NCBI GenBank assembly: GCA_964646465.1
Contig: CAZYEN010000015.1
Coordinates: 1 to 63,987, forward strand
Direction: 5' to 3'
Source: an uncultured Candidatus Saccharibacteria bacterium
GTDB taxonomy: Bacteria; Patescibacteriota; Minisyncoccia; SW-4-49-11
DNA: 63,987 bases
The notes beneath the pieces were generated by a model. That model had not been told where the DNA came from and made no database searches. It saw only the letters and a program-made list of their open reading frames with translations. Position 1 is the stretch's first letter; each line of letters begins with the position of its first letter. Positions 13,409-25,168 of this stretch are shown piece after piece. The translations under genes and the position numbers were made by a program.

Positions 13409-13437
13409 TACCCCGCAATCTCAATTGAGACAGTGAT
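13409..13437. repeat. Left copy of the 29-bp direct repeat (orphan duplicate of the ileS 3' end); putative att site
   Basis: TACCCCGCAATCTCAATTGAGACAGTGAT matches 22245-22273 at 28 of 29 positions in the same orientation. It contains the palindrome TCTCAATTGAGA. Confidence 0.85.
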
Positions 13438-13562
13438 AAAATTTTGAGAAGTATTATATTTATTATATTATAACATAATAATCACGCAATTGATAATACA
13501 AATTTGGAGTGGAGGATTTTGTAATTCTGTCCTTTGAGCTTTTGCCTTTTATAGTGAAGAGC

Positions 13563-22237: not shown

Positions 22238-22243
22238 AAAATA

Positions 22244-25168
22244 CTACCCCACAATCTCAATTGAGACAGTGATTATATCTTGTTCTAATTTGAAAGTTTG
22301 GGTATTCTCTGCTCCTTCTAGTGTTTGGAATTGCCATTCTACTACTCCGACTGGCTGGCTGATTGTATCTTGGTATTTTTGGATTAAAGTTTGTATTTCC
22401 TCTGAGGCTTGTATGGTGAGCTTGATATTTTGCTCTTTAGATAATTTGGAATTCTTTCGGGTAATTTGTAAATTACGAATTAGCTCTCGTACTAATCCTT
22501 CTTCTTTGAGCTGAGGGGTAATGGTGTCGTCCAAGCTCAAGGCTAGTCCTTGATATTCAATTATATTGTCTGAGACTTTTTTATCATAGATTTCTTTGAC
22601 ATTAATCTCTGTCTTGATAATATCTTGCATCCAAGGCTCTAATTCTATACCTTCTATACCCATAGCTTGTAAAGGTTGTCTTACTTTGATGGCTGAGACT
22701 TCTCTTAATTTGAAACCTTGCTCAAGAATAATTTTTAATTTATCTACTTTGATTAATATTTCATAATCATCTTTATTAAATGTATAATTATTTTCTGAAG
22801 TTTTTATTGCTTCATCCCACTTTAATTTATTTTCTGGATAGACACTTAGATGTATAGATTCGACTGCCTCAGCACTCTGACTCACTACTAGCTCCTGATA
22901 TAAATATTCTGTTATAAATGGAGAAAATGGAGCTAAGAGATGAATTAATTTTACAAAATTATTATATAGAGATTGCAAAAATTCTGTGTCCCCATTAGCA
23001 AAGTCAGTACGAGCGGTACGAATATACCATTTAGAAATATCGTCCATACAGGCTTTAATCTCTCTTGTGGCTTGTGGTATACGATAATTATCTAGAGCCC
23101 AATTAACTTCGTGTACAGTATGATCTACTCTAGTATATAACCACTTATTTTTAGGATTTATTGGTTTATGTTCTCCTACCTGAGGCCTCCAATCACTGAC
23201 ATTAGCATAAGTTACCAAAAAACTATACATATTCCAAAGTGGCAATAGGTATTCTTGAGTAATGATTTTGACTGTTTTAGCTGAGACTGTGGTGTCCTCT
23301 CCGGCTGCAATTGGGGTGGAGAAAAAGTTTAACCGCAGAGCATCGGCTCCAAATTGGTCGATCAAATCAATTGGATTAGCATAATTTTTCTTACTTTTAG
23401 AGAGTTTTTGCCCATCGTCAGCTAATACTAATCCATTTACAATTACATTTTTATAACTTGGCTTATCGAATAAAGCAGTGGACAAGGCTAATAGTGAATA
23501 AAACCAACCTCTTGTCTGGTCTACTCCCTCAGCAATATATTCAGCTGGGAATTTAGACTCAAATAGATCTTCGTTCTCAAATGGATAGTGAAATCTAGCA
23601 AATGGCATCGCCCCAGAATCATACCAAACATCCAAAACATCCGGAATTCTACGATACTCTTCTCCATCTATACTAAAAGTGATGTCATCTACAAAAGGTC
23701 TATGTGGATCAGTTATTCTAACCCCTGACAACTCTTCTAATTCACCAAATGATCCGATAATCTTAGTCTTACCTGATTGAGTCTGCCAAACTGGCAAAGG
23801 AGTTCCCCAATATCTAGTACGAGAAATCCCCCAATCTTTGACTTCTCTCAACCAATTACCAAATCTCCCCTCTTTGATATGGTCAGGAATCCAGTTAACA
23901 GTAGCATTATTAAAAATAAGCTTATCCCGCAATGTACTCATTGCCACATACCAAGAAGTAATTGGTTTATAAATTAACGGAGTATTAGTTCGCCAACACA
24001 TTGGTAAATCATGCTCATAATCCTCTACTTTGAATAATTGATTAGACTGTTTTAAATCTTCAATAATATATTTATTAGCTTTGCGATAAAACATACCCGC
24101 ATAAGGCTTGATTTCATCAACAAAATCACCCTGATCATTAATAACATCCACTGATAGAATGCCTACTTTTTGAAAAATCTCATTATCCTCGGCACCATAA
24201 GGGGCTAGATGCACAATTCCAGTTCCTGAGTCAGTGGTCACATAATCTCCTTCATAAATCACAAAAGCATTTTCTTTACCTACAAAATAATCAAACAGAG
24301 GCTTATAGGTCTTACCTAATAAATCCTGTCCTTTATATTCAGCAAGTACAGTGTAAGCTTCCCCAAAAACATTCTGGGCTAAATCCCGAGCCACGATATA
24401 TTGCTCCCCTGAATTAGGAATAGAGACCTTGATATAGTCAATTTTGCTATTCACAGCCAGAGCAAAGTTAGTTGGCAAAGTCCAAGGAGTAGTAGTCCAA
24501 GCTAATACAAAAACATTAGGGCTATCTGTTAGCTCAAATTTAATTGTCACTGCTGGATCAACTTGTTTTTTATAACCTCCTAGAGCAACTTCCGCATTAG
24601 ATAAAGTTGTCCCTGCTCTAGTTGAATAAGGCACTACTTTGAAGCCTTCATAAAGTAGCCCTTTACGGTATAATTCTGATAAACTCCACCAAATAGATTC
24701 TATATAATTAGCATCCATAGTGGCATATTCCTCATCGGAGTTGGTGAGTCTTCCAATTTTATACTCTAACTCAATAATTCCTTCTCGGTGAGCAGAGACT
24801 GATTCTCGACATAGTTGATTGAACTTATCTATGCCATAGTCTTCGATGTCTTTCTTTTGTTGAAAGCCTAATTTCTTCTCCACTTCATACTCTACGGGAA
24901 TACCCTGACAATCCCAACCAAGACTTCGAGTGACTCGATATCCTTTCATTGTCCAATATCTTGGCATTATATCTTTTAAGGCAAAAGTCAGCATGTGCCC
25001 AGCATGAGGCTCCCCATTGGCGGTAATTGGGCCGTCATAAAAGGCTTTAGTCCTGTCAACTGGTCTTGAGTCTATAGATTTTTGTAAAATATTTTCGATT
25101 TTCCAAAATTCTAAAGTTTGTTTTTCTAACTCTGCAAATGATACATTAAAGAGAGGTTTTTTGAACAT
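22244..25168 (-). CDS. ileS: Isoleucyl-tRNA synthetase (type 2-like)
   Basis: HIGH-type motif PHAGHML, KMSKS-type KLSKSKKN, an editing-domain insertion, 974 aa. Confidence 0.9.
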   Translation of the reverse strand: MFKKPLFNVSFAELEKQTLEFWKIENILQKSIDSRPVDRTKAFYDGPITANGEPHAGHMLTFALKDIMPRYWTMKGYRVTRSLGWDCQGIPVEYEVEKKLGFQQKKDIEDYGIDKFNQLCRESVSAHREGIIELEYKIGRLTNSDEEYATMDANYIESIWWSLSELYRKGLLYEGFKVVPYSTRAGTTLSNAEVALGGYKKQVDPAVTIKFELTDSPNVFVLAWTTTPWTLPTNFALAVNSKIDYIKVSIPNSGEQYIVARDLAQNVFGEAYTVLAEYKGQDLLGKTYKPLFDYFVGKENAFVIYEGDYVTTDSGTGIVHLAPYGAEDNEIFQKVGILSVDVINDQGDFVDEIKPYAGMFYRKANKYIIEDLKQSNQLFKVEDYEHDLPMCWRTNTPLIYKPITSWYVAMSTLRDKLIFNNATVNWIPDHIKEGRFGNWLREVKDWGISRTRYWGTPLPVWQTQSGKTKIIGSFGELEELSGVRITDPHRPFVDDITFSIDGEEYRRIPDVLDVWYDSGAMPFARFHYPFENEDLFESKFPAEYIAEGVDQTRGWFYSLLALSTALFDKPSYKNVIVNGLVLADDGQKLSKSKKNYANPIDLIDQFGADALRLNFFSTPIAAGEDTTVSAKTVKIITQEYLLPLWNMYSFLVTYANVSDWRPQVGEHKPINPKNKWLYTRVDHTVHEVNWALDNYRIPQATREIKACMDDISKWYIRTARTDFANGDTEFLQSLYNNFVKLIHLLAPFSPFITEYLYQELVVSQSAEAVESIHLSVYPENKLKWDEAIKTSENNYTFNKDDYEILIKVDKLKIILEQGFKLREVSAIKVRQPLQAMGIEGIELEPWMQDIIKTEINVKEIYDKKVSDNIIEYQGLALSLDDTITPQLKEEGLVRELIRNLQITRKNSKLSKEQNIKLTIQASEEIQTLIQKYQDTISQPVGVVEWQFQTLEGAENTQTFKLEQDIITVSIEIVG
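22245..22273. repeat. Right copy of the 29-bp direct repeat (the genuine 3' end of ileS); putative att site
   Basis: TACCCCACAATCTCAATTGAGACAGTGAT. On the reverse strand it encodes ...ITVSIEIVG-stop of ileS. Confidence 0.85.

Follow-up and report, generated by a model that had tools for sequence, protein, structure and literature searches.

The closest described parallels to the locus considered here are two kinds of restriction-modification (R-M) locus that lack linked mobility genes. In the allelic, or substitution-type, R-M loci, viz. the hsd/immigration control region of E. coli and a Xanthomonas locus with a Type III or a non-homologous Type I system, conserved flanks enclose non-homologous R-M types in close relatives and some alleles are free of R-M genes (Furuta, Abe and Kobayashi 2010, PMC2853133). 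In the second kind, described as 'insertion with long target duplication' of R-M genes, the class is defined by a direct repeat that exceeds 30 bp and occurs nowhere else in the genome (PMC2853133, citing an earlier Helicobacter pylori study by the same group); the Type I hsdMSR genes of Haemophilus influenzae 86-028NP, where a 46-bp repeat and the 3' end of HI0105 overlap and mobility genes are lacking, are a case in point (PMC2853133). The stretch of DNA analysed in this work, referred to as the window, comprises 63,987 nt of contig CAZYEN010000015.1, in which a Type I R-M operon lies between ileS and a GH13 alpha-amylase-family gene and is bracketed by two copies of a 29-mer. In an earlier note on this DNA, the two copies had been taken for the attachment sites attL and attR of an island integrated into the 3' end of ileS. 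Our results indicate that the locus is a further instance of the known allelic R-M kind, in an under-studied phylum. In the interpretation that we consider likely, the DNA from the end of ileS to the GH13 promoter is a slot for allelic R-M systems, the contents of which would be swapped by homologous recombination, and the 29-mer copy next to GH13 (hereafter the orphan) would be an old relic. The observations on which this interpretation is based are the alternative cargos of the slot, the breakpoints between them, an older form of the orphan, clustered substitutions in the orphan of the window and the absence of an integrase.

The comparison set consisted of 79 genome contigs retrieved with ileS as the anchor and 13 metagenome contigs retrieved with GH13, to which about 20 further contigs were added by exact-protein look-up of the relatives of GH13 and hsdR; the sampling thus covers two public collections, and individual contigs are denoted below by L numbers. 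All copies of the locus were oriented from ileS to GH13, and the ileS side is accordingly called the left. The ileS relatives, at 75-91% identity, are all from metagenome-assembled genomes of freshwater Paceibacteria/Parcubacteria, which belong to the candidate phyla radiation (CPR). Exact-protein look-ups of ileS and GH13 returned the same arrangement only, and no strain-level empty site was found by them. A protein search with the C-terminal 299 aa of ileS, which was meant to catalogue the C-terminal alleles, yielded just 8 proteins, all of them fragments. The genes of the region all lie on the minus strand, and the features required for the argument, in the order from ileS to GH13, are as follows.

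22244..25168, minus strand: ileS, isoleucyl-tRNA synthetase, 974 aa (Pfam tRNA-synt_1, Anticodon_1 and DUF5915), the left conserved flank.
22245..22273, minus strand: right 29-mer copy, the functional last nine codons of ileS and part of its stop codon (ITVSIEIVG-stop).
22038..22243, minus strand: spacer 3' of ileS, with 2-3 GC-rich hairpins resembling repetitive extragenic palindromes (REP-like) and the hsdM promoter, whose TG-extended -10 box is at 22047-22055.
20469..22025, minus strand: hsdM, Type I methyltransferase subunit, 518 aa (TIGR00497, E 1.5e-227, 756 bits; Pfam N6_Mtase and HsdM_N).
17424..18608, minus strand: hsdS specificity subunit, 394 aa, with two target-recognition domains (Pfam Methylase_S in two stretches; PADLOC Specificity_I, E 4.5e-100).
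13563..16631, minus strand: hsdR restriction/translocase subunit, 1022 aa (TIGR00348, E 1e-169, 566 bits; Pfam HSDR_N, SWI2_SNF2, T1R_D3-like and EcoR124_C).
13438..13515, minus strand: GH13 promoter region, resident right flank (promoter scan: -35 box at 13496-13491, TG plus -10 box at 13472-13467).
13409..13437, minus strand: left 29-mer copy (the orphan), a non-coding copy of the ileS 3' end within the 5' leader of GH13.
11842..13389, minus strand: GH13 alpha-amylase-family gene, 515 aa (Pfam Alpha-amylase, E 3e-55), the right conserved flank.

Judged from these comparisons, the slot is hypervariable and its contents have been repeatedly exchanged in a clade of freshwater Paceibacteria. The Type I family of the window is found in mosaic form in L004/L103, L083/L105-L111, L085 and L099, and the passenger genes in these relatives include T5orf172, KilA-N, AAA_15, RhuM, GIY-YIG and DUF1016/YhcG genes. 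In comparison with its closest genome (L004/L103), the window is a mosaic, with nucleotide identities of 88.5% in ileS, 87% in hsdM and 95.8% in the segment from the RAYT-like open reading frame (ORF) to hsdR, whereas the hsdS proteins are only 43% identical. The contigs L084 and L086 carry an unrelated Type I system, the hsdR of which has an EcoEI-type C-terminus, together with Fic, ORF6N or Bro-N, and AAA_15 genes. In L114 (3580-8360), the Type I operon is replaced by a Type III res (RE_endonuc)/mod (EcoP15I_C) pair on the opposite strand; the flanks of this contig and of L105 share 97-98.5% identity, and both contigs have the same RhuM gene to the left of the cargo and the orphan followed by GH13 to its right. 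The GH13 genes of L085 and L086 are 1.4% apart, yet these contigs contain different Type I families, and the clade with the full orphan, within which GH13 diverges by no more than 5%, has three cargo types. Other alleles are free of R-M genes: in L008, L020 and L098, ileS is followed by a REP-rich spacer of 200-380 nt and then by GH13 with its own promoter. In L095 the slot holds a Bro-N gene only, followed by GH13, and in L087 an hsdS fragment lies upstream of GH13.

Homologous flanks around non-homologous R-M systems are therefore seen in the pairs window/L084, L085/L086 and L105/L114, and alleles lacking R-M genes in L098, L008 and L020, with Bro-N alone in L095. These features, together with the lack of linked mobility genes, are those of the allelic R-M loci, and a pattern of this type points to replacement through flanking homology. 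The present locus differs from the described loci in its CPR host, in the use of a slot between ileS and GH13, in the position of its breakpoints near two promoters and in the presence of a relic of the end of the upstream gene in the right flank. The claim of the earlier note that the DNA between the two copies is accessory and variable is thus borne out by the differing cargos of the relatives. The description of both flanks as housekeeping needs to be amended for GH13, which several relatives lack at this position. L095, L008, L020 and L098 each have their own ileS tail in a single copy, and since L095 has a gene in the slot, cargo can evidently reside there without a duplication.

At a wider scale, GH13 itself is an insertion, variably present between ileS and a glycogen-synthase-like gene. 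The latter gene is directly 3' of ileS in L005 and L017, while in L007, L009-L011 and L016 a segment of about 870 nt follows ileS and precedes the glycogen-synthase-like gene; in several of L007, L009, L010, L011 and L016 this segment opens with an ORF that starts 3 nt past the ileS stop codon.

The positions at which homology between alleles ends are informative in relation to the 29-mers. Between the window and L084, homology covers ileS, the REP-like spacer and the hsdM promoter and ends at 22037, 12 nt short of the hsdM ATG; it starts again at 13515, on the upstream side of the GH13 promoter. With the R-M-free L098, the homology on the left reaches about 22084 in a local alignment or 22106 by blastn and resumes at 13480, and in the pair L105/L114 the homology on the right breaks at the -10 box of GH13. 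The breakpoints of the swaps, viz. 22037-22106 on the left and 13480-13515 on the right, are thus located 140-210 nt and 45-80 nt inside the 29-mers, where they adjoin the hsdM and GH13 promoters. The GH13 promoter region is conserved beside different cargos (from 13515 in L084, from 13480 in L098, and in L114). On the left, the homology with L084, which has a different cargo, runs to 22037, and the spacer at 22038-22243 is for this reason best regarded as a resident of the slot and not as cargo. Further, the sequence of about 20 nt past the ileS stop codon, TATTTTGACTTTTGTAGGGG, is common to the R-M-free L005 and L098 and also to L006, a contig that ends 417 nt after ileS and whose further downstream content is not seen; L005 also lacks GH13. 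As this sequence is shared with island-free genomes, the ileS-proximal copy and the flank downstream of it are native and do not represent an arm of an element.

With regard to the repeat itself, the two copies, TACCCCGCAATCTCAATTGAGACAGTGAT at 13409-13437 and TACCCCACAATCTCAATTGAGACAGTGAT at 22245-22273, are in the same orientation and identical at 28/29 positions, as the earlier note had reported, and they are the only matches in the window when up to 3 mismatches are allowed; none of 100 dinucleotide-preserving shuffles contained two matches. By ungapped extension a weaker similarity of 38 nt at 89% is obtained, and in the repeat pair of L084 it reaches 42 nt at 83%. The right copy is, as had been proposed, the true end of ileS, being the end of the 974-aa ORF, and the 30-mer that ends ileS in L004 and L084 is identical to it; the derivation of the repeat from the ileS 3' end also holds. 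The orphan, which reads ...ITVSIEIAG-stop on the minus strand, lies next to GH13 as stated earlier, although it ends 18 nt rather than 20 nt upstream of the GH13 ATG (13389); the TG-extended promoter found by the promoter scan places it in the 5' untranslated leader of this gene. An independent assembly, Logan SRR5468437 (L003), contains the junction of hsdR, orphan and GH13 as well. Apart from the high AT content of the region, nothing favours a chance match or membership in a dispersed repeat family, the latter of which the earlier note had listed as an alternative; the shuffles, the restriction of the 29-mer to two copies in the window and the retention of the orphan at the orthologous site in 14 related contigs rule both possibilities out.

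The orphan is older than its near-identity to ileS would suggest. An older form of it, ATCACTGTTT[C/A]AATTGAGATTATAGAGTAG, is found at the orthologous position in all 14 of the related contigs with this GH13 leader (L083, L084, L099, L103-L111, L114 and L116), whatever their cargo, and it differs from the IEIVG allele of ileS at 4-6 positions. L105 and L114 also carry the older orphan, and in them a Ricin-B-lectin gene and RhuM are upstream and no ileS is present within 10 kb. As it accompanies every cargo type seen, the orphan is independent of the present cargo. The window alone has the near-identical form, ...TCTC...GCGGGGTAA. The differences specific to the window number 6-7 within a 30-nt patch and 4 in the 105 nt that flank it (Fisher p 0.002-0.008), and 4/6 of the window-specific changes in the orphan match the resident ileS allele, while the ileS copy is unchanged. 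Changes which are clustered in this way, mostly toward the resident ileS, with ileS itself unaltered, point to gene conversion that was short and non-reciprocal. As a cause of the high identity, reciprocal crossing-over of the two repeats was considered and rejected, as only the orphan has changed, along its whole length, and ileS has not. We infer from this that the 28/29 identity is secondary, having probably arisen by gene conversion in the lineage of the window and not by a fresh insertion.

Based on these results, the following course of events is proposed. Incoming DNA would replace the resident cassette by homologous recombination within the conserved flanks, for which ileS, the REP-like spacer and the hsdM promoter would provide the homology on the left, and GH13 together with its promoter and leader that on the right; the crossovers would often fall close to the two promoters, and no dedicated integrase would be required for such an allelic substitution. 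The orphan, an old copy of the ileS 3' end, would be fixed in the GH13 5' leader as a non-coding segment. In the lineage of the window, a short-patch, non-reciprocal conversion from the end of ileS, 8.8 kb away, would have restored it to 28/29, and the orphan would resemble a fresh attachment repeat due to this re-homogenisation toward ileS.

The reading put forward in the earlier note, viz. that an 8.8-kb R-M island integrated site-specifically into the 3' end of ileS, with the 29-mers as attL and attR and an integrase that was lost or acts in trans, draws on real features: the 3' end of a gene is present twice in direct orientation with its reading frame kept, a 12-nt palindrome, TCTCAATTGAGA, is contained in both copies, and, as in the integrase-borne islands and prophages at the 3' ends of tRNA, tmRNA or protein genes, the gene is intact and defence genes lie between the copies. 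A contig in IMG/VR (L112, 16.5 kb, classed as viral, about 35% GC) also has, at 5605-15679, a related cassette of hsdM, AAA_15, hsdS, an hsdR 77% identical to that of the window, and DUF2130, which adjoins a large serine recombinase and is near a ParB-N6_N4 methylase; members of this cassette family can thus travel on elements bearing an integrase, and a phage or prophage is a possible vehicle for it. However, to our knowledge large serine recombinases do not leave identical repeats of 29 nt, and the locus departs from the integrase-borne islands in several other respects. The cargo breakpoints are inside the repeats and off them, the ileS-proximal arm is native and shared past the ileS copy with island-free genomes, and the orphan persists beside unrelated cargos and where ileS is not nearby. 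The arrangement that the earlier note had named as speaking against attachment sites is what L084 presents, with both copies around an unrelated Type I system, and L114 has the orphan with a Type III system. Recombination at the 29-mer would be predicted to leave the scar ...GAACAAGATATAATCACTGTCTCAATTGAGATTG[T/C]GGGGTA[G/A]GATATATAAATTACCAGAATG and the circle junction ...CTTCTCAAAATTTTATCACTGTCTCAATTGAGATTG[T/C]GGGGTAGTATTTTGACTTTTG; the empty site that the earlier note had asked for, with ileS joined directly to the GH13 leader and a single 29-mer, was not found in any of the 79 genome loci, the 13 metagenome loci or the contigs looked up by protein. A Pfam scan of 29 ORFs of the window (the 8 island proteins, ileS and 20 further ORFs of at least 150 aa) gave no Phage_integrase, Resolvase or Recombinase match, the only relevant match being the housekeeping enzyme RuvC; precomputed Pfam hits on matching contigs showed no tyrosine or serine recombinase for most of the remaining large ORFs of the window, and no integrase was present in any of the related cargo variants, in agreement with the earlier statement that none lies inside the island. 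The 29-mer, sought as a possible attP, had no match among IMG/VR contigs, and no element bearing attP was found there. The palindrome, which had been suggested as a recombinase core, was rejected in this role as it is degenerate in the orphans of relatives and absent from several other ileS alleles. The attachment-site reading of the present island is hence, on the sequence comparisons, largely refuted and very improbable, and the decayed island that had been offered as a fallback could apply only to an older event that created the orphan. Of similarly slight probability is the proposal that the point right after the ileS stop codon is an active, integrase-independent entry site for R-M genes in CPR, duplicating about 30-40 nt of target, in which case the near-perfect repeat would reflect a recent re-insertion, or excision and reintegration via the 29-mer, instead of conversion, possibly assisted by RAYT/REP.

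Several points weigh against the interpretation as an allelic slot with a relic orphan. Homologous recombination is deduced from the breakpoint pattern and was not seen directly; all of the data come from metagenome assemblies, though the junctions recur in independent assemblies; and the part of the genome scanned for an integrase acting in trans is about 64 kb only. Two of the six changes in the orphan (GTG to GCG and TAG to TAA) differ from the resident ileS, reflecting either extra mutations or a donor that was another ileS allele. The orphan could also be a gain in one clade rather than ancient: in a sister clade (L098/L096 and L085/L086) the promoter is the same, but of the orphan the 3' third is present and the 5' 23-25 nt are absent, and in a neighbour-joining tree of GH13 the clade with the full orphan and the clade without its 5' part are sisters, so that gain and loss fit equally by parsimony. 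Lastly, the model leaves the first creation of the orphan unexplained. For this, two origins can be considered, each of which we regard as possible and somewhat doubtful. Would-be donors are ileS alleles ending in ...ATTGCGGGGTAA or ...ATTATAGAGTAG; the old orphan (IEIIE-stop) matches the ileS alleles of L017 and L098 at 26/30 positions each and the IEIVG allele of L004 and L084 at 25/30.

In one of these origins, a first insert of spacer, cargo and promoter would have entered an ancestral junction at which ileS and GH13 were about 18 nt apart, duplicating about 30-42 nt of the target, either by the 'insertion with long target duplication' known from R-M genes or through an ancient integrase event, and later swaps between the copies would have taken place by homologous recombination. 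This concerns the origin of the orphan alone and is compatible with the allelic interpretation of the present state. In favour of this origin, a stop codon closes the orphan and a short, operon-like spacer separates it from GH13, the repeat attains a length of 38-42 nt, and R-M systems flanked by such repeats without mobility genes have been reported (PMC2853133). The present locus resembles that class in having a Type I operon with passengers, a repeat that includes the 3' end of the upstream gene and is unique in the window, and no integrase; it differs in that no clean empty site is known here and that the repeat misses the cargo boundaries, has outlived several cargo replacements and owes its high identity to a probable secondary event. 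By the criteria of the class it is borderline, with a repeat of 29 nt at 97%, or 38-42 nt at 83-89%, which is at or under the 30-bp threshold, and with a RAYT-like ORF inside. Moreover, no genome with a tight ileS-GH13 junction was found among those compared, the R-M-free L098, which lacks the full orphan, also has the GH13 promoter that lies immediately upstream of it, and the ileS-proximal spacer is common to L005, which has neither GH13 nor R-M genes. The other origin, to be held just as tentatively, does not involve cargo insertion: the orphan would have hitch-hiked with GH13 on a piece of donor DNA, starting within the 3' end of the donor's ileS, that was joined by illegitimate recombination, or it would be a local patch, a templated copy or conversion from the ileS end into the GH13 leader at a time when the two were a few hundred nt apart. 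The variable presence of GH13 between ileS and the glycogen-synthase-like gene, the slightly closer match of the old orphan to the L017 and L098 alleles than to the resident one, and the absence from the sister clade of precisely these 23-25 nt at the 5' side of the orphan, as would fit a short gain, are in its favour, as is the conversion between copies counted as having happened in the window lineage, itself deduced from the substitution pattern. However, the donor arrangement was not observed, gene conversion normally requires homology on both sides of the patch, and independent deletions of the palindrome-containing segment in the sister clade would give the same pattern.

The allelic interpretation carries a caution for the calling of islands, as att-like repeats around a defence operon did not in this case mark a mobile element; a relic repeat that is kept young-looking by conversion implies that direct repeats alone are weak evidence of an integrative island. 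It would also mean that Paceibacteria, CPR bacteria with small genomes, have a dedicated chromosomal slot at which R-M systems are exchanged among lineages without an integrase. The slot may be empty or be occupied by a Type III system or by one of two Type I families, and the target-recognition domains and the repeat number of hsdS vary as well. This bears on the diversification of phage defence in these organisms, and it extends a known phenomenon rather than describing a new one.

The remaining features of the slot, again in the order from ileS to GH13, are listed below.

19652..20467, minus strand: DUF3800 protein, a passenger and candidate defence gene (Pfam DUF3800; PADLOC candidate PDC-M04A, E 4e-33).
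19552..19690, plus strand: candidate small antisense transcription unit, with a promoter, a structured RNA of about 80 nt and a terminator-like hairpin reaching the stop codon of the DUF3800 gene.
18962..19303, minus strand: small Bflower-domain gene, a passenger (Pfam PF21784, E 9e-20).
18610..18960, minus strand: 116-aa gene, a passenger that has a hydrophobic C-terminal stretch and matches no family.
16753..17382, minus strand: RAYT-like (HUH/Y1) ORF, 209 aa (NCBIfam NF047646, E 4e-17, 62 bits against an 80-bit cutoff).

The PADLOC models MTase_I, Specificity_I and REase_I are all matched, and full-length hsdM, hsdS with two target-recognition domains and hsdR are present, as expected of a Type I system; from its sequence, 13563-22025 is an intact and working-looking Type I R-M operon, consisting of hsdM, the passengers, hsdS, the RAYT-like ORF and hsdR. 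Across the window, base composition shows no discontinuity of GC content or skew at the island.

The same R-M family, with hsdR 87-96% identical, occurs at unrelated loci of other CPR genomes, again without an integrase, and around the copies elsewhere (L100-L102) no bracketing direct repeat was seen among the largest repeat families listed. More than 8000 database proteins are hsdR homologues at E <=1e-200, many of them at about 80% identity, and the few that are named are from Paceibacterota, Magasanikbacteria, Moranbacteria and Spechtbacterales. These matches suggest that a single Type I family has spread unusually widely and recently by horizontal transfer within CPR.

The hsdS gene contains a perfect 12-nt tandem repeat of 2.9 copies at 18028-18062, in the central conserved region, which encodes (ELEA)3. 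Among the relatives compared (L103, L083, L085, L106 and L107), 3 or 4 ELEA units are present, and near-identical contigs differ in this regard (4 in L083, 3 in L106). In the hsdS of EcoR124I and EcoR124II, variation in a TAEL repeat alters the spacing of the recognition site. The present system is similar to these Type IC enzymes in the central 12-nt repeat of hsdS, with a 4-residue unit in 3-4 copies, and in an hsdR with EcoR124_C, but the unit here is ELEA in place of TAEL, and an effect on spacing is presumed only by analogy; by the same analogy, the repeat may serve as a specificity switch operating through strand slippage.

In the RAYT-like ORF the HFH and YDHIIR motifs are present and the Pfam Y1_Tnp match is weak (E 0.01). 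Perfect inverted repeats of 28 nt, at 16934-16961 and 17262-17289, lie within its own coding sequence, and its GC-rich REP-like repeats are thus inside the ORF instead of flanking it. Given also the score below the NF047646 cutoff, the ORF may represent either a gene in decay or a RAYT into which its own REPs have inserted. A 24-nt tandem unit in it varies in copy number in relatives, with 209 aa in the window against 225 aa in L004 (12518-13195) and L102 (969-1646). The 'REP cluster' mentioned in the earlier note amounts to the 2-3 GC-rich hairpins of the spacer only.

A small RNA locus had also been noted earlier. A search of positions 11000-26000 against Rfam at E up to 1 gave no match, this locus included, whereas the segment does look like a unit of promoter, hairpin and terminator and is accordingly described here as a candidate antisense small RNA (19552-19690, plus strand). 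Its promoter is the strongest match in the island (11/12 with TG, at 19552-19580; TTGAAA, 17 nt, TATAAT), the terminator-like hairpin at 19662-19681 is followed by a T tail, the fold has a z-score of -3.8, and the segment is 83-87% conserved in L083 and L085.

An extended promoter motif, TATGnTATAAT, often followed by ATAAYAAATATAAT, recurs in the window at 11765-11802, 13441-13478, 22047-22057 and 19570-19593. The breakpoints of the cassettes are at or beside promoter motifs of this kind, and the shared promoter sequence might itself act as a short homology for recombination.

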